Assembly (NCBI GenBank): GCA_049976305.1
Contig: JBMFIM010000004.1
Location: 1-54,936, forward strand
Origin: Candidatus Micrarchaeia archaeon
GTDB taxonomy: Archaea; Micrarchaeota; Micrarchaeia; Micrarchaeales; CABMGC01
DNA length: 54,936 nt
Direction: 5' to 3'
Made by a program: the position numbers. Positions 9,001-33,000 of this stretch are shown one piece after another; positions within the stretch are counted from its first letter, which is position 1; every line of letters begins with the position of its first letter.

Positions 9001-12000
9001 GATAGAAGATGGCAAGAAAATCTGCCATGATAGCAAGCCAAGCAATAGCTTTGGCTAAAACCTTGGACTCCTGAGCCACAAGCAACCCTCTTTTTAATTT
9101 TACTTTCAAGTTAATAAGGATAAGCCTAAGTGGGAGTATGGAGTGCGAGATCTGCGGGGCAGAGGTTGAAACCCTCTACGAAATAGAGATAGAGGGCACG
9201 ACAATGCTAGTGTGCAGCGTATGCGCAAGAGGCAAGCATCTCACCGGCAAAGTAGTAAAGTCGAAGGAGGAGGCAAATACGGAAAACAAAGCAAAGCCCG
9301 GCGCAAGGCCAAAGGAAAAGGAGGAGCTAGAAATAATAGACAACTACGGAGAGGTCATAAGGAAGGCGAGGGAGAAGCTAGGCTTGCCGCTAAAGGTACT
9401 GGCGGAAAAGATAAGCGAAAAAGAGAGCACGCTTGAAAGGGTAGAGAACCAAAAGACTCTGCCAAACGACAAGCTGGTGAGCAAGCTGGAGAAGGAGCTT
9501 GGAATAAAGCTCACAAGGCCTGTCGAGCAAGGCGCACGAGTTTCTGTCACGAAACCCAGCGAGCCTCTTTCGCTATGGGACGCTGCTGAAAAGAAGAAAA
9601 AGGGCTAGCGCATGGCTGTCGAGCTCGGCCCTCTTGTTGCGAGCGTGAAGGAGCACATAACGCTAGATTCGCTGAAGGGCAAGCTCATAGCAATCGACGC
9701 ATACAATACCATATACCAGTTTCTCTCAATAATCAGGCAGCCAGACGGCATGCCGCTGAGGGATTCCCACGGCAATGTCACAAGCCACCTCTCCGGACTT
9801 TTTTACAGGACCATAGACTTTTTGCAGCACGGGCTTGTGCCCATATACGTGTTTGACGGCAAGCCGCCAATGCTCAAGATAAAGACCATAGAGGCGAGGA
9901 TGAACAAGCGTGAAAGCGAGCTTGAAGCTTGGAACGAGGCGCTTGAAAAAGGCCTGCTTGAAGAAGCTAGGCAGCACGCTATGGCAAGCACAACGATAAA
10001 CAAGGAGATAGTAGAAAGTGCAAAAGAACTACTGGACTACATGGGGATTGCATGGCTCCAGGCGCCGAGCGAAGGAGAAGCTCAAGCTGCACACCTTGCA
10101 AAATCTGGTGCGGTTTACGCTGCAGCAAGCCAAGACTATGACCTTTTCCTTTTCGGCTCGCCTATAGTGGTAAGAAACCTGGCAATAACCGGCAGGAGGA
10201 AGCTGCCTAAGAAAAACATCTATGTCAGCATAAAGCCTGAGCGCATAGTGCTTGATAGGCTCCTCTCTAGTTTGGGGATAACGCAAAGGCAGCTTGTGTG
10301 GCTTGGCATGCTAGTTGGCACAGATTTCAACGAAGGCATAAGCCGCATAGGACCGAAAACTGCACTGAAGATAGTGAAAAAGTGCAGGAGCTTGGAAGAG
10401 GTAGAGGCTGAGCTTGCTAAGAACAACTATCAAAGTTTTGAAGTCGATGCGAAAGAGGTAGAGCGCATATTCCTGGATCCGGAAGTGGAGGAAATAAATG
10501 CAAGCGAAATTGCAAGAAAAGCCAGCTCCTTGATGCCTGACAAGGAAAAGCTCATAGACTTCATGTGCGGCAAGCATGATTTCGACAAGGAGCGGGTTGA
10601 AAAGTTTGCAGACATGCTTGTGAAGCTTAAAAGTGGGGCGAACCAAAGAAGCATATTTGAATGGTCCTAGCTTCTTTCGTCTTTGATTTAGATAGGTTTT
10701 TATAGGATGAATGCAAGAATATTACGAAGGCCATGAACAAGCTTGTGGCGATGCTTACACTGCTACTGTTAGGCGTTGCTTTTGCAGAAAGTGGCCCTTT
10801 GAGTACACTGCCTTCGGTGCCCATTGCTGCATATTTGCCTGTTTCGCTGGTTGCCTTTACCATTTCTTTGGATGTAGTTGCAATAGGCTATATAATTAGC
10901 AAGCTTTTCCCAAGCGCAGGCATAAGCGGATGGATTAACGCGGAGTATTGGGAGCTTGCGAAGACCGCGATGCTCATTGCGGGCATATATGCAATATTAG
11001 TTTTCATAAGCAGCGTTGCAGTAATAGTAAGTGGCGGAACGCCCTCAACGAGCAATGTGCTGGCGAACTTTAACTCCATAATAACTTCCTCTAACGAGTA
11101 CTTTGCTCAGACTGAGAACGCAATAGGCTTCAGCATGGACACCATGTATTATATTTCCCAAACAGCAGGAGCCCTAAAGTCGATAACCCTTTCGGTGCAG
11201 CCTTTCTTAAATGTTCCGCCCGTACCTGAGTCGCCGGTATATTTCAAATGGGGTTATTCCGAATCCATTTATGCAAACCAACTTCTCGAGCAAGGTATAA
11301 CTACAGGCACGTATGAGTCTATGATAAACGATGCATTCGTACTCCTTTATATTCCAATGGCCTTTCTTACCTACATACTCCACATAGGAATATACTATGC
11401 AATAGTGCTCGGCCTATGGATTCTGCTGCCAATAGGCATTCTTTTCAGAGCTTTTCCATTCATAAGAGGAATAGGAGGAACGCTTATAGGAATAGGCATG
11501 GGAATAGGCATAATATTCCCTGCAACGATTGTCATGTTTAACATCCCATTAAGCAACGCCATGCAGTTTCTAATGCCACAAAGTATTGGCGTGCAAGCGT
11601 CAAACTTTCTCAACCTTGGAGGGTTTGGTCTTTTTCTTACAGGCCTTACGAATTTATGGTATATAATTGGCTCGATTTACTATTTCCTCAATCTATTCTG
11701 GTCATATGGCGCATACTTGATATTGCTGCTGCTTACATACATATTAGATCTTGCCATAGTCTACGCGCTTGCAGACAATATAGCTAGAACCTTCGGCGGC
11801 TCGTTCAGGCTAGGCTTGACGGGCAAGATGAGGCTGGTATAGTGGTTAGTTTGCTGCTCGCTAGCGTATGCGGCGTCTTCGCCAATGGTATGAGCGTAGG
11901 CTATGGCGGGGCTTGGGAGAAGCAGTGGCTTGCTGTAAGCCTATTTGTAGTGCTTGCTGTGCTTTCGATATCTGGCCTACTTTACGCGATAAGCGGAGTT

Positions 12001-30000: not shown

Positions 30001-33000
30001 ACAAGCTTGTTGTATGCAAAGACTGCTATGTGAAATACAGCGCGCTAAGGTCAAAATACGAAAGCAGGCAGAAGCTTTACATTGCGCTTGGCATACTTTT
30101 TGTCATATTCTCAACTATAGTCTCGACAAACAAGCTAGTAGGGTTGGGCATAGGGATTTTCATATTTTTGCTTCTTTACCTGATATCCTTCCTTAGTTAC
30201 ATTCCTGCTTTGAACTTGCCTAAAACTTCGGAGGCAAAACCTAAAAAGGAAAAGTAATAAATTATTGCACACAGAATAACAATTAGTGCGACCGGTGTTT
30301 GTGTGAAAAGCCTCGAAGAGGTGGAGTCAGATATAATCTCGCTTATAAATGATAAGCAGGAAATGGCGTATGCTGAAATAAAGAAATACGCAGAAACCTA
30401 TGGCATAGAAGATGGGCTTCTGGAGAGAAGCCTAAAAGAGCTCGAAAAAGCGAACGCTATAGCATCTAGAAACAGCGGCGGCGTACTGACATACTACATG
30501 CTCCAAGAGGAGCAACCAATCAAAAGGGTTTTCATAGTTGAAGACGACAGGAACATAAACAAGCTGATGGCCCTTTCCATAGGCAAGGAATTTGAGATTA
30601 CTCAGATATATGACGGAAAGGAGGCGATGGAAAGGATAAAGTATGAGAAGCCAGACCTTGTGATACTCGACCTGATGCTTCCGGGCATGGATGGCTTAGA
30701 GATTTGCCAGAGGATAAAGTCGGATGAGAGCTTGAAGGATACTGTAGTGATAATAGTAAGCGCGATGGACGCAACCTCCAATAGGTTCAAGGGCATAAAG
30801 TATGGAGCGGACTACTACATAAAAAAGCCTTTTGACCCTGCTGAGCTCAGAAGCCTAGTTACAATATTCCTAAAAAAGAAAGGCAGGCGATTCGACCCAC
30901 TAATAGACCTGCCCAACGAGGAAAGGATAACAAACGCTGTGGAGAACGCAATGAAGCAAGGCTCTTTGCAATCGACAATAGGCACTCTCAAGGTAGAAGG
31001 CCTTGCTGAATTTGCAAATGCGTTTGGCACAGAAGCGGGAATGACAATATTAAGGCTTGTTTCGCAGCTTCTTCAAGACAAGGTAAAGGAAATAGGCAAT
31101 GTGTTTGTGGGCTTTCTCAACAGCAGTGATTTTGTAATAGCAGGCGATGAGGCAGGCGTTAGAAAGCTTGTTGAAGGGATAAAGGCTGAATTCTCTGCAG
31201 TGCTGCCTTTCGTATACCAAAGCGAAGGCTACAAGCCTATAGAGCTAGGTGTCGAAAACGCGTACAGCAGCCCTGTTCCTTCGCTTTCGCTATCGTTTAC
31301 CGCAATAGGCAAGCAGGAAATAGCTGAAAGAAGGGCAGAGGTGCTCAAGAACAAGCCTGTAGACAGCATAGGCGCCTATACCTACGAGGAGCTTAGGCAC
31401 ATTCTAGGGAGTGAGGACATAGACGTTACGATAACTAGGGATCCTTCAGGCGTTAAGCTCTCTGTAAGCAAAAGAAACTCTAAGGAGAAGCCTGAAAAGG
31501 ACAAAGACCTCAAAGCAATATAGTCACTTGCGCTTTTTCTTCTTCGCGGCTTTAGGTTTATGCTGCTTGCTGTGTTGTTGCTTCTTGCTGGCACTTCCTA
31601 TCTCCAAGCTCGTTCTTTTTATTTTGCTGCGCTCCAAAAGGTCGAGCACATGAGAATCCTCTGTAGGCCTTTGGTCGTCAGCGCTTGTCTGTAATGCAAC
31701 ATTCTGAATGCCGCCCTCTTGTAGTATGTCCCTAGTTTGCTGGAGCTTCCTAAGGGCCTCTAGCTTCTTGCGAAGCTTTTCCTTGCTCTCTGCCATGAAA
31801 TCGCAAAGTTTATTATATTGGAAAATTTAAAATACTAACTACAATTGCAAAAAGGACTTGCATGATCGCATTTTATGAAAAACCTTTCACAGAGGCAGAG
31901 AGCCTAGAAAGCCTCAACCATATAATCAGGGACTGGTTCAGCAAGAAGTACAAGCAGCTTACTCCGCCTCAGCGTTACTCTTTCAAGCTGATAAGAGAGG
32001 GCAGGAGCCTGCTCATAACAGCGCCGACAGGTAGTGGAAAAACCTTCTCTGCATTCATGGCCATACTCAGTGACCTTATGGACATGGCGGAAAAGGGCGA
32101 GCTGGAAGACAAAACTTATTGCATATACATCTCCCCGCTGAGGGCACTTGACAACGACATATTCCGCAATCTTACCGGGCCACTGAACGAGATCTACAAT
32201 GAGCTTGAGAAAGGCGGAAAGAAGTTGAAGCGCATAACAATAGGAGTGAGAACAGGCGATACGGAGCAAAAGGAAAGGCAAAGGCAGCTTGCACGGCCGC
32301 CAAACATACTGGTGACAACTCCGGAGAGCATAGCAATCCTGCTTAACGGCGCGAGGTTCTCGGAGAACCTAAAGAGCGTTAAGTATGTAGTTATTGATGA
32401 AATCCACGAGCTTGCGAACAACAAGAGAGGAGTTCATCTCAGCATATCCTTAGAGAGGCTTGCAAATCTGGCGGGGCACGACTTCGTGAGAGTAGGCATG
32501 GGCGCAACTCTCTACCCGCTTGAAAATGCGGCAAGATTCCTTGTAGGCTACAAGCCTGATGGTAGCGAAAGAGACTGCTACATTATAGACGCAACGTGGG
32601 ATAAGCCTATGAAATATCTTGTCATCTCGCCTGTAAAAGACTTGGTAAACGCAAAGGACGAGCAGATAGAAAGCGCAATTTACAAGGTCTTAGATTCTAT
32701 AATCAAATCCAACACTACCACTCTCATTTTCACCAATACGAGGAGCGGAACCGAAAGGGTAGTATTCAATCTTGCAAAAAGATTCCACTACACTGAGGAG
32801 CAGCTGGCAGCGCATCACGGCTCCCTGTCAAGGGAGGTCAGGCTTGAAGTGGAGGAAATGCTAAAAATGGGCAAACTTAAGTGCGTAGTTTCCTCAACGA
32901 GCCTAGAGCTGGGCATAGATATAGGAAGCATAGACAACGTTGTGCAGCTCGGATCGCCGAAGAGCGTTACGAGGGCAATTCAGAGAATAGGGAGAAGCGG

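Follow-up and report, generated by a model that had tools for sequence, protein, structure and literature searches.

Here, we report a gene cluster on the chromosome of a Micrarchaeia archaeon that encodes a probable new relative of the machineries for conjugation in bacteria and DNA import in archaea, with six different copies of its putative channel protein and a motor split over three genes. The window, i.e., the whole stretch of DNA analyzed, comprises 54,936 nucleotides of contig JBMFIM010000004.1. Our best joint explanation, to which we give, mechanism included, a probability of roughly 60%, is a chromosomal, vertically inherited Micrarchaeota membrane machine of the same stock as the bacterial type IV secretion systems (T4SS) and the archaeal Ced and Ted systems. 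A literature search brought up no paper that describes this archaeal system.

The putative channel part consists of six neighboring open reading frames on the forward strand between 10733 and 17946. The first, g250 (10733..11842), encodes a polytopic membrane protein of a putatively VirB6-like family (hhalign probability against the g255 family, 99.2%) and carries the motif as RAFPFIRGIGG; its ortholog occupies the same position in 16 loci with the ancestral cluster and in own-genus locus L017; in L028 it is truncated by the start of the locus, and the sequence retrieved for L016 does not reach it. The second, g251 (11842..13017), is the most diverged paralog (97.1%, E 6.5e-11). The third, g252 (13011..14741; 99.3%), has a large cysteine-rich insert of about 200 amino acids between its transmembrane helices, with ten cysteines in the alignment. 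These are followed by g253 (14738..15871; 99.6%, E 1.4e-23), which was found in 26 of 31 relatives, g254 (15868..16893; 99.0%), and g255 (16894..17946), the best conserved paralog and the one folded with AF2. At E ≤ 0.1, the six proteins have no match in Pfam or NCBIfam, save two chance-level NCBIfam rows. Paralogy is weak in pairwise phmmer searches (g252–g255, 1e-6; g253–g255, 4e-4) and strong between profiles built from 19–20 orthologs per array gene, where the g255 family matches the other five at 97–99.6%. The motif R-x-h-x3-R-x2-G-G is present in five of the six window proteins and, by family, in 19/19 orthologs of g250, 19/20 of g253, 19/20 of g255, 14/19 of g254, and 11/20 of g252 (18/20 in a looser form); in the g251 family it is replaced (0/19). 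An earlier note on this DNA had described six adjacent Pfam-less paralogs with a common motif and an extra paralog on contig C6. The reading frames, the absent Pfam hits, and the profile comparisons all agree with the first point, the motif was recovered as above, and the extra paralog came back in a family profile search of the genome. As judged from sequence, the six genes are confirmed as true paralogs of one family for which there is no Pfam model.

The link of this family to VirB6 is of a different kind. The g255 model (pLDDT 78.7) has TrwI/VirB6 7o3v_F as its best match among 48,161 PDB chains (Z 9.2, rmsd 7.1, 245 of 261 residues aligned), a Z only 0.6 above that of a designed helical repeat, and the structure search warns that in helical models the arrangement by itself can yield Z values up to about 13. 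Foldseek places VirB6 at rank five (E 0.17). The VirB6-like fold proposed earlier thus gains a second paralog that leads to the same chain, but support from sequence is absent: Pfam TrbL (PF04610) gave zero matches against the genome at E ≤ 10 and zero against 121 family representatives at E ≤ 1, three family profiles searched against the PDB did not find VirB6, and none of these sequence methods (Pfam, PDB profile searches) connects the six-paralog family to VirB6/TrbL. The HMM of the C6 VirB6-like family picks up all six window paralogs (3e-12 to 3e-3). It is predicted fold and gene context, not sequence, that suggest VirB6 homology.

The motor is encoded downstream, on the same strand. The g263 protein (26376..27209) has an N-terminal helical hairpin and a soluble domain; it is a paralog of g264 (hhalign 98.0% against the g264 family, E 1.6e-13) and in the relatives' loci invariably immediately precedes it. 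The g264 protein (27211..28035) combines a two-helix membrane anchor with a predicted VirB4 N-domain-like domain and would be the front of the split motor. With its AF2 model (pLDDT 77.6), Foldseek ranks 1–10 are exclusively TrwK/VirB4 (probability 0.98–0.99, best E 0.032), which reproduces the previously noted match to 7o42_A (0.99, E 0.033), at TM-scores of 0.3 and E-values of about 0.03. A VIA second look aligned residues 69–271 of the model with VirB4 220–384 (8rtd_O, Z 10.8, rmsd 7.3, 162 residues), the other rows covering only a 55-residue hairpin; in the all-against-all VIA search VirB4 is absent from the top 50, and Pfam CagE_TrbE_VirB (PF03135) was not detected. The structure matches support a VirB4-N-domain-like fold in g264. 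The third motor gene, g265 (28066..29571), encodes a P-loop ATPase with two C-terminal helical repeats. Its Pfam matches above the cut-offs are DUF87 (3e-18), AAA_10 (1.2e-12), and P-loop_TraG (3.1e-8), and its NCBIfam matches, all far below the cut-offs, are VirB4-like CD1110 (2.2e-19), CedD (5.9e-19), and CedB (5.9e-16). Against the PDB, the family profile reproduces the HerA 8wiv (2.6e-13) and VirB4 4ag5 (9.6e-9) matches of the earlier note and adds HerA 4d2i (3.9e-13), i.e., HerA structures are matched better than VirB4 structures. These matches support g265 as a VirB4/CedB/CedD/HerA-class ATPase. Some of its orthologs bear inteins. A fused form of N-domain and ATPase was not found, which counts as weak evidence.

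Three further genes, missed by the earlier note, belong to the cluster. Directly after g265 in all 19 loci covering that position lies a 98-amino acid protein, p98 (29573..29869, forward strand), in which the helical repeats from the C-terminus of g265 recur as a separate protein and which the g265 family HMM hits at 2.3e-8. It is followed in the same 19/19 loci by the 133-amino acid p133 (29856..30257, forward strand), whose sequence predicts an N-terminal zinc ribbon (CxxC...CxxC) and two C-terminal transmembrane helices, and which comes after g265 in other families. The 250-amino acid p250 (24491..25243, reverse strand), which combines a coiled coil with a winged-helix domain at the C-terminus (Pfam HTH_Cmi2_C, 4e-5, under the cut-off), is the last gene of the ancestral cluster and is inverted in this genus. 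The gene ahead of it is p133 in 13 of the 16 collinear loci, and the same holds for 10 of 12 loci from other families; p250 is homologous to the protein behind the C6 motor (hhalign 98.7%).

The relatives show that the ancestral unit is a single collinear cluster. Twelve genes, with the six-gene array upstream of the motor and a gap of at most 2.3 kb between the array and g263–g264–g265, are found in this order in 16 of 20 relatives' loci; of the other four, three belong to the same genus and share the rearranged layout of the window, and one stops at a contig end. In this genus an insertion of housekeeping genes, about 8 kb long, splits the cluster in two, and the span 10733–30257 given earlier is not one uninterrupted system. 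The genus-specific rearrangement corresponds to 17947–24242 and 25321–26322; the former contains an Exo5/Cas4-like nuclease, alaS, carS, and a 754-amino acid surface protein, and the Exo5-like gene at 17947 adjoins the array in this genus only. Orthologs of the g265 ATPase occur in 31/31 relatives at 63–99% identity, which declines smoothly with kinship (82–99% in the genus, 67–78% in the family, leaving aside one cut match, and 63–71% in the order) and therefore fits vertical descent. The phylum-wide distribution previously claimed is borne out by the g264 family, present in 261 of 301 sampled Micrarchaeota genomes. These observations support the view that the genes form a single conserved cluster, carried on the chromosome and akin to T4SS/Ced.

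Array size seems to be fixed. Six family reading frames were mapped in all 16 collinear loci, in three loci of another family (f7), and in five further arrays; a sixth further array has five such frames and one of 873 amino acids. The additional six-gene arrays in other families are new here. In some of these extra arrays the proteins carry giant inserts, extracellular and as long as 1380 amino acids, and the arrays adjoin genes for giant secreted cysteine-rich proteins. In a tree of 71 proteins with SH-aLRT support, the position-2 clade holds 11/11 rows (95), as does that of position 5 (93), and the clades of positions 1, 3, and 6 (95, 99, and 99) unite members of the f7 and the extra arrays; position 4 has no resolved clade, and positions 1, 3, 4, and 6 of this order fall beside, not inside, the matching clades. 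Since most positions have a clade of their own, at least five subunit types predate the whole-array duplications. From the constant array size and the position clades, which strengthen the idea, we infer a hetero-oligomer of six paralogs. To call it the first VirB6 pore made of six, as the earlier note did, is overstated: the rvh system of Rickettsiales, as described in the cited accounts, has four or five VirB6 paralogs in tandem, which have diverged strongly and some of which bear large extensions, together with duplicated VirB4, VirB8, VirB9, and VirB2, likewise in reduced genomes of obligately host-associated cells (PMC8035066, bioRxiv 10.1101/2025.08.29.673095). That system, however, is bacterial and diderm with members recognizable as VirB6 family, whereas the Micrarchaeota arrays are constant at six in every array examined and are duplicated as a whole with position order retained.

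We also found a second, compact pilin–channel–motor system on contig C6, new here, which consists of a pilin, one VirB6-like protein, one N-like protein, a CedB-like ATPase (best NCBIfam match CedB, 8.9e-19), a winged-helix protein, and a second ATPase. It is paralogous to the window system component by component and looks like the minimal Ced/Ted form. Its pilin gene adjoins the single C6 VirB6-like paralog, and the pilin family matches T4SS_pilin in 18/20 members (best 3.3e-7) and TrbC in 15/20 (best 4.1e-5). In family f7, two pilin genes immediately precede the six-gene array in 3/3 loci, and eight of ten f7-type pilins match Pfam TrbC and/or T4SS_pilin, one of them above the cut-off (28.2 bits; cut-off, 26.6). 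The pilin candidate on contig C9, g00505 in the earlier note, gains from this comparison: its TrbC match has E 0.0088, and the array-side f7-type pilins are its nearer relatives (E about 1e-14, as compared with 6e-5 for the C6 pilin). The pilin gene of this genome has been relocated to C9.

Among the nearest known counterparts, two are archaeal. In the accounts cited here, Ced of Sulfolobales comprises CedA, CedA1, CedA2, CedB, CedD, and CedE, with the VirB4 N-domain function split between CedB and CedD and with CedE as a second VirB6-like paralog, and Ted of Thermoproteales comprises TedA, TedB, and TedC (PMC11868833, PMC9905601). By the same accounts these systems resemble ours in being chromosomal, domesticated, and T4SS-derived, in having neither outer-membrane parts nor relaxase nor coupling protein, and in combining a VirB2-like pilin and a VirB6-like polytopic protein with a membrane-anchored ATPase that joins a HerA-like ATPase domain and a VirB4-like N-domain (PMC11868833, PMC9905601). 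In Micrarchaeota, by contrast, the N-domain proteins are encoded apart from the ATPase, the putative channel protein is represented in one operon by six paralogs that are fixed and ancient, and p98, the zinc-ribbon membrane protein, and the coiled-coil/winged-helix protein are added; the ATPases reach 58–68 bits on CedB/CedD models with cut-offs of 600–700 bits, and the organisms are host-dependent DPANN archaea rather than free-living Thermoproteota. Among bacterial systems, the R388 T4SS (TrwI/VirB6, TrwK/VirB4, TrwM/VirB3, and a VirB2-type pilin; PDB 7o3v, 7o41, 8rtd) supplies the best fold matches of g255 and g264, the pilins match the Pfam TrbC/T4SS_pilin families of this type, and the two-helix anchor before the VirB4-N-like domain recalls VirB3–VirB4. 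R388 differs in its single VirB6 gene against six types here; by sequence our proteins fall outside TrbL/VirB6 and CagE_TrbE_VirB, and VirD4 and relaxase were not found in this genome. Patescibacteria (CPR), ultrasmall epibionts and ecologically the bacterial counterpart, are described as having a conserved chromosomal T4SS with VirB4, VirB3/PrgI, VirB6, and VirB2, the last in arrays, few relaxases, and, in one strain, T4SS genes essential for epibiotic growth (PMC12102498); T4SS-like tubes and host RNA uptake are proposed in a 2026 preprint (10.64898/2026.06.21.733656). Their components, however, are detectable by standard T4SS profiles, and it is the pilin that is expanded there, not VirB6. 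The HerA–NurA resection helicases and anti-phage HerA share with g265 the matches to HerA structures and DUF87; here the neighbors are membrane proteins and pilins, a conserved nuclease partner is absent, and the ATPase scores 48–51 bits on HerA NCBIfam models with cut-offs of 800–970.

Archaeal T4SS-like genes are frequently found on plasmids or integrated elements, and this, with the rearrangement in our genus, might point to the remnant of an integrated conjugative element, i.e., mobile DNA and no host machine. We regard this as highly improbable: the cluster is carried by 261/301 genomes of the phylum, gene order is kept and identity tracks kinship, GC across the region (0.42–0.46) matches the rest of the window, the inserted genes are of housekeeping type (alaS, carS) and none is a mobile-element gene, and the inteins in some ATPase orthologs suggest that the gene is conserved and has long been resident. 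Neither a relaxase nor a coupling protein was found in the genome (93.7% complete), which also speaks against a mobile remnant and has been counted in favor of a second alternative, a VirB2-like pilus for attachment to the host or to a biofilm, with the six paralogs as an assembly platform that lets nothing pass. The pilins are indeed the component with the best sequence support, and the giant inserts (up to 1380 amino acids) and neighboring secreted cysteine-rich proteins of the extra arrays suggest surface functions. Yet Ced and Ted, as described, also lack relaxase and coupling protein, and Ced imports DNA (PMC9905601, PMC11868833); in this order the pilin gene left the cluster while the remainder was kept intact, and the winged-helix and zinc-ribbon proteins, possible nucleic-acid binders, were retained. 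A pilus serving adhesion only is, on balance, unlikely, though to be taken seriously.

Rather improbable, in our judgment, is an unrelated membrane complex with a HerA-type ATPase, e.g., for envelope biogenesis, lipid or nutrient uptake, or division, whose likeness to VirB6 and VirB4 would be convergent or spurious. The top PDB sequence matches of the ATPase are HerA structures, the sequence link to VirB6 is absent, and the fold scores are middling. Such a complex would nevertheless have to accommodate agreeing evidence from three separate components: Pfam-detectable VirB2-type pilins beside the array and beside the single C6 paralog, the whole-domain alignment of g264 to VirB4 220–384, and T4SS-type NCBIfam families that outrank HerA for both ATPases; CedB and CedD, as reported, likewise mix a HerA-like ATPase with a VirB4-like N-domain (PMC11868833).

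We consider the T4SS/Ced-related machine the better account, and it would possibly work as follows. The g263 and g264 proteins would anchor a hexameric g265 motor at the membrane, jointly replacing VirB3 and the VirB4 N-domain. Above the motor, the six paralogs, with one copy of each, would assemble into a hetero-oligomeric channel or platform, and this platform would pull pilin out of the membrane into a conjugative-type pilus or a short conduit. DNA or another macromolecule would travel through the pilus or conduit between the symbiont and a partner cell. Such a machine may serve the exchange of large molecules between these tiny host-dependent archaea and their hosts.

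The region is made up of twelve co-belonging genes and one insertion, as read from the open reading frames (ORFs) of the window, and its GC content is even (0.42-0.46). The six array ORFs, g250 to g255 (positions p1 to p6; 10733-17946), lie back-to-back or overlapping on the same strand and encode polytopic proteins of 341-576 amino acids, for none of which Pfam gives a match at E ≤ 0.1. Pairwise similarity among the six is near noise. One alignment per array gene was built from the relatives' genomes, with 19-20 orthologs each, and profile-profile comparison (hhalign) of the g255 family with the other five gave probabilities of 97.1-99.6% and E values from 6.5e-11 to 1.4e-23, bearing out the description of six adjacent Pfam-less paralogs in the earlier note. 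A motif, R-x-h-x3-R-x2-G-G, is common to five of the six paralogs just ahead of a conserved proline-bearing helix; at position 2 (g251) it is replaced in 19 of 19 orthologs.

Downstream of the array comes an inserted block with an Exo5/Cas4-like nuclease gene (17947-18819; Pfam Exo5, 1.2e-42), alanyl-tRNA synthetase (alaS) and then CDP-archaeol synthase (carS), followed by a gene for a 754-aa protein without family assignment (21978-24242, minus strand), the 250-aa coiled-coil protein p250 (24491-25243, minus strand), a 333-aa protein without family assignment (25321-26322, plus strand), the paralogous two-helix membrane proteins g263 (26376-27209) and g264 (27211-28035), and the ATPase g265 (28066-29571), directly after which the 98-aa and 133-aa proteins (p98, p133) are encoded. 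The corresponding region was taken from 20 relatives and its ORFs were assigned by phmmer. Sixteen of these loci have the order p1-p2-p3-p4-p5-p6-g263-g264-g265-p98-p133-p250 on a single strand, with a gap of at most 2.3 kb between p6 and g263; three loci, all from the own genus, have the window layout, i.e., nuclease, alaS, carS and the 754-aa gene interposed and p250 inverted; one stops at a contig end past the sixth paralog. The best phmmer match of each paralog in the relatives' loci is the gene at the same position. The same order in 16 loci, together with the rearranged layout of the own genus, indicates that the 19.5-kb span goes back to an operon of about 12 kb into which other genes were later inserted; the 98-, 133- and 250-aa genes belong to this operon, and the nuclease, alaS and carS do not. 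The conserved block in relatives described in the earlier note is found in the 16 collinear loci; in the own genus, as in the span 10733-30257 of the window, it is interrupted. A functional tie to the nuclease was dropped because it stands beside the array in this genus only.

Several neighbouring genes deserve a brief description. The nuclease, immediately 3' of the sixth paralog, is of the PD-(D/E)XK type with a C-terminal cysteine cluster. The alaS frame (18821-19054) is open from just past the upstream stop and has its first ATG/GTG/TTG at 19055; the 78 codons upstream of 19055 look like coding sequence, and the alaS ORF of the closest relative begins 5 nt past the upstream gene. The alaS start codon is probably non-canonical. 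The 754-aa and 333-aa proteins of the inserted block are rich in N-x-S/T sequons; the former has a cytoplasmic tail and a transmembrane helix late in its sequence, and the latter is anchored at its N-terminus. Both are probably exposed at the cell surface and glycosylated. Within the genus the 333-aa gene is always found ahead of g263. Directly 3' of the cluster, the product of 30303-31523 has a winged-helix-like segment at its N-terminus, a response-regulator receiver domain and a weak GGDEF-like region.

To which known family the array proteins belong was approached by fold and by sequence. The AF2 model of g255 (pLDDT 78.7), a paralog other than the one folded previously, has TrwI/VirB6 (7o3v_F) as the best of 48,161 PDB chains (Z 9.2, rmsd 7.1, 245 of 261 residues), the next row being a designed helical repeat (Z 8.6) and DotA of the Dot/Icm T4SS ranking sixth (Z 7.3); please note that Z values of this size can come from the helix arrangement alone in helical proteins. 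Foldseek places VirB6 fifth (E 0.17, probability 0.82). An Atlas neighbour cluster of g255 (score 0.89) carries PF27251 (CedA1) in 23% of its members, which is a lead only. The VirB6-like fold claimed before reappears with the same best chain in a second paralog, but sequence methods find no such link: a genome search with Pfam TrbL (PF04610) is empty at E ≤ 10, and the model matches none of 121 representatives of the channel family (the VirB6-like family of the array) at E ≤ 1, and PDB sequences compared with the g253, g255 and 121-member superfamily profiles include no VirB6. With a fold match at moderate Z and no sequence link, homology of the channel family to VirB6 is plausible only; the match to 7o3v_F supports a protein that may work like VirB6, not membership in VirB6/TrbL.

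The putative motor ATPase, g265, scores above the Pfam cut-offs for DUF87/HerA (3e-18), AAA_10 and P-loop_TraG. Its best NCBIfam match is the VirB4-like CD1110 (2.2e-19; 69 bits vs a cut-off of 325), and it falls below the cut-offs for CedD (NF053655; 5.9e-19, 68.1 bits vs 600) and CedB (NF041017; 5.9e-16, 58.2 bits vs 700). NCBIfam HerA gives 7.7e-14, the HerA models reaching 48-51 bits against cut-offs of 800-970, nearly equal to VirB4-like; by score g265 is not a HerA equivalog, and its conserved neighbours are membrane proteins, with no NurA-type nuclease partner among them, although no search aimed at NurA was made. Among PDB sequences HerA comes first (2.6e-13) and VirB4 behind (9.6e-9), in agreement with the resemblance to both that was noted before. 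A mix of this kind is described for CedB and CedD in PMC11868833, where the ATPase domain resembles HerA and the N-domain VirB4.

g263 and g264 are paralogs (98.0% in profile-profile comparison). In the AF2 model of g264 (pLDDT 77.6) a helical hairpin at the N-terminus is joined to an alpha/beta domain, and Foldseek ranks 1-10 for this model are all TrwK/VirB4 (best E 0.032, probability 0.98-0.99, TM 0.30). In a VIA pass over the Foldseek list 8rtd_O came first (Z 10.8, rmsd 7.3, 162 residues), aligning g264 model residues 69-271 with VirB4 220-384, the stretch ahead of the ATPase domain, and every other row covered the 55-residue hairpin only; these results uphold the likeness to the VirB4 N-domain. 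In the all-against-all VIA search VirB4 is absent from the top 50, a list filled by 55-residue hairpin matches. PDB sequences gave nothing meaningful with the g264 profile, and its Atlas neighbours are TraC-like/PrgI (scores 0.77-0.80, leads only). PF03135 (CagE_TrbE_VirB, the VirB4 N-domain) finds nothing in the genome up to an E value of 10, g265 carries no N-domain of this type by Pfam, Pfam PrgI (VirB3-like) finds nothing in the cluster genes, and the longer matches of the g264 and g265 profiles include no fused N-domain-ATPase protein. The complex prediction for g265 with g264 scored 0.29 against a mark of 0.32 and speaks neither for nor against an interaction. Fold and context lead us to view the g263-g264-g265 trio as a VirB3/VirB4-like motor whose parts are encoded by three separate genes.

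The same genome has a compact second system of seven genes on contig C6 (5422-11495). Its first product is a 99-aa pilin (signal peptide, two helices); a single VirB6-like and a single g264-like protein come next, then a 342-aa ATPase (best NCBIfam match CedB, 8.9e-19, 67.5 bits, below cut-off), a 229-aa winged-helix protein, a 130-aa protein that stands outside the conserved parts and, last, an ATPase of 691 aa that matches CedD weakly (7.7e-7). The order is conserved in relatives; among 20 of their loci the counts are 19 for the pilin and for the channel protein, 20 for the N-like protein and for the ATPase, 15 for the 229-aa protein and 16 for the large ATPase. The C6 channel HMM matches all six window paralogs (3e-12 to 3e-3); the N-like proteins of the two systems are related at 99.6% and the 229-aa protein and p250 (coiled coil and winged helix) at 98.7% in profile-profile comparison, and the ATPases at 1.9e-35 by HMM. 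Judged by these comparisons, the two systems are paralogous component by component. By NCBIfam score, g265 and the C6 ATPase are relatives, not equivalogs, of CedB/CedD.

A VirB2/TrbC-type pilin was taken as a protein with a signal peptide and then two hydrophobic helices separated by a short charged loop; by Pfam, pilins of this type occur both in the C6 pilin family and beside the six-gene array. In the C6 family 18 of 20 members match T4SS_pilin (best 3.3e-7) and 15 of 20 match TrbC/VirB2 (best 4.1e-5). In another Micrarchaeota family (f7), all three loci have two pilin genes immediately 5' of p1-p6-g263-g264-g265, and eight of ten array-adjacent pilins match TrbC and/or T4SS_pilin, one of them above cut-off. 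The pilins of the window's own genome are weak by these models: the candidate on contig C9, g00505, reaches 0.0088 with TrbC, and the C6 pilin 1.5 with T4SS_pilin (3.5 in a six-frame genome search). Since the C9 candidate resembles the f7-type array pilins (E about 1e-14) far more than it does the C6 pilin (6e-5), it is most likely the pilin of the window system, relocated in the genome, and the guess made for it earlier has gained support. At its site (C9, 7220-9480) the pilin gene lies beside that of a 610-aa polytopic protein, near a MoxR-type ATPase; this neighbour, which has numerous transmembrane helices and carries N-x-S/T sequons towards its C-terminus, is possibly a glycosyltransferase-like membrane protein.

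The number six is not peculiar to the window. Seven further families, sampled by nine loci, have the core g264-g265-p133 (zinc ribbon)-p250 with no array adjoining it, and five such genomes have 13-18 matches each to the channel profiles. Six of their arrays were mapped: five have exactly six family ORFs, and the sixth has five mapped ORFs and an 873-aa frame among the profile matches that was dropped from the map; the ORFs flanking the extra arrays are outside the channel family. Six is thus a fixed number per array in the arrays mapped. One extra array is followed by a T2SSE (VirB11/PilB-class) ATPase (5.7e-36). Other Micrarchaeota families thus carry two further six-gene VirB6-like arrays at a distance from the motor (loci L145-L150; genomes G148, G055 and G239); giant members of extra arrays have 876-1380 aa, and two extra arrays are flanked by large secreted cysteine-rich proteins of 517 and 1294 aa.

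In a quick maximum-likelihood tree (71 proteins, 348 columns, LG+G4, SH-aLRT; L147 array left out) the clades follow position, not array. Position 2 (support 95) and position 5 (93) each unite all 11 rows, and the clades of positions 1, 3 and 6 unite f7 arrays with extra arrays (95, 99 and 99); position 4 forms no resolved clade, and positions 1, 3, 4 and 6 of the window order are long branches beside, not inside, the respective clades. The C6-type singles form a separate clade (100). The position-specific clades indicate that at least five subunit types, and probably all six, are older than the whole-array duplications, each array holding one of each in the same order. This is the pattern expected of an obligate hetero-oligomer; the assembly of different paralogs proposed before has gained support from the fixed six and the position clades but stays a hypothesis, its stoichiometry and ring shape being inferred.

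Of 31 related genomes, 26 have g253, 28 have g264 and all 31 have the ATPase, and the g264 profile matches 261 of 301 sampled genomes of the phylum (two of them, G208 and G046, unpublished), which supports the phylum-wide occurrence; three families are mostly without a match (0/7, 2/15 and 0/5). The named public relatives are almost all labelled Micrarchaeota, and the g255-family profile matches a protein of Ca. Micrarchaeum sp. A_DKE, an organism that grows in co-culture and whose genome is complete. A search of 1.84 billion proteins with the superfamily profile yields 3,572 representative clusters at E ≤ 0.001 and 2,107 at E ≤ 1e-30. Members of the channel family are "hypothetical protein" in public records and no Pfam model exists for the family; the 49 proteins that a word-indexed search gave for the C6 channel family likewise lack any Pfam domain, and each is either unnamed or "hypothetical". 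Fourteen matches of the g265 profile are longer than g265, 13 being intein-bearing orthologs and one a distant actinobacterial DUF87 protein. The intein-bearing Micrarchaeota orthologs (Pfam Intein_splicing, LAGLIDADG_3) have 1000-1650 aa, e.g., L133:485-3628. The sequencing runs listed for 10733-17946 are hot-spring metagenome DNA runs only, with no RNA run among them.

Ced and Ted of Thermoproteota come closest: both are chromosomal, derive from a T4SS and have a VirB4-like ATPase, a VirB6-like protein and a pilin. In Ced, CedB and CedD share the N-domain function, and CedE is a further paralog of the channel protein (PMC11868833; PMC9905601). Rickettsiales have four or five diverged VirB6 paralogs in tandem (PMC8035066; bioRxiv 10.1101/2025.08.29.673095), so the multi-paralog idea has precedent and the earlier claim of a first is overstated. 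Patescibacteria have a chromosomal T4SS, essential for epibiotic growth in one strain (PMC12102498). For DPANN with T4SS-type parts, the literature searched gave one item only: a VirB4/TraG-like domain has been proposed for giant surface proteins of nanohaloarchaea (PMC10266531). In the same literature nothing was found that joins DPANN and CedB, or VirB4 and "archaeal genomic dark matter", and that on DPANN and VirB6, as far as its text was available, concerned bacteria or was general survey. In the paper on the A_DKE co-culture (PMC8975820) the words secretion, pili, pilus, VirB and HerA are absent from the main text, and DUF87, HerA, VirB, TrbC, conjugal and secretion from the supplements, two large tables aside.

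In the genome, which is 93.7% complete, the coupling protein model PF02534 (VirD4/TraG) has no match and the single relaxase model used, PF03432, reaches E 0.28 at best, extending to the whole genome an absence stated before for the block. Taken together, a T4SS/Ced-like system is the best explanation of the cluster, with a probability of about 0.6: the gene cluster, the pilins and the motor fold speak for the T4SS/Ced relationship proposed in the earlier note, but no VirB6 sequence link and no fused VirB4 were found.

It is conceivable, though we consider it rather unlikely, that the six paralogs, one of each, would form a hetero-hexameric ring matching the six-fold ATPase, with distinct subunits as in MCM2-7 or CCT, that the whole would be a T4SS-derived feeding or exchange conduit for nucleic acids or other macromolecules from Thermoplasmatales hosts, and that the extra arrays of other families, part of which carry giant inserts outside the cell, would serve one and the same split motor as exchangeable "heads", each suited to different hosts or cargoes. 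How DPANN archaea take up material from their hosts is an open question, for which the cluster is a concrete phylum-wide candidate; if the A_DKE locus carries the whole cluster, tomography, proteomics and pull-downs are feasible now. If borne out, the cluster would extend the T4SS/Ced lineage to DPANN archaea and add a motor divided among three genes. It would also be the clearest example of a VirB6-type platform that is obligately hetero-oligomeric, and so bear on the unexplained VirB6 arrays of Rickettsiales.
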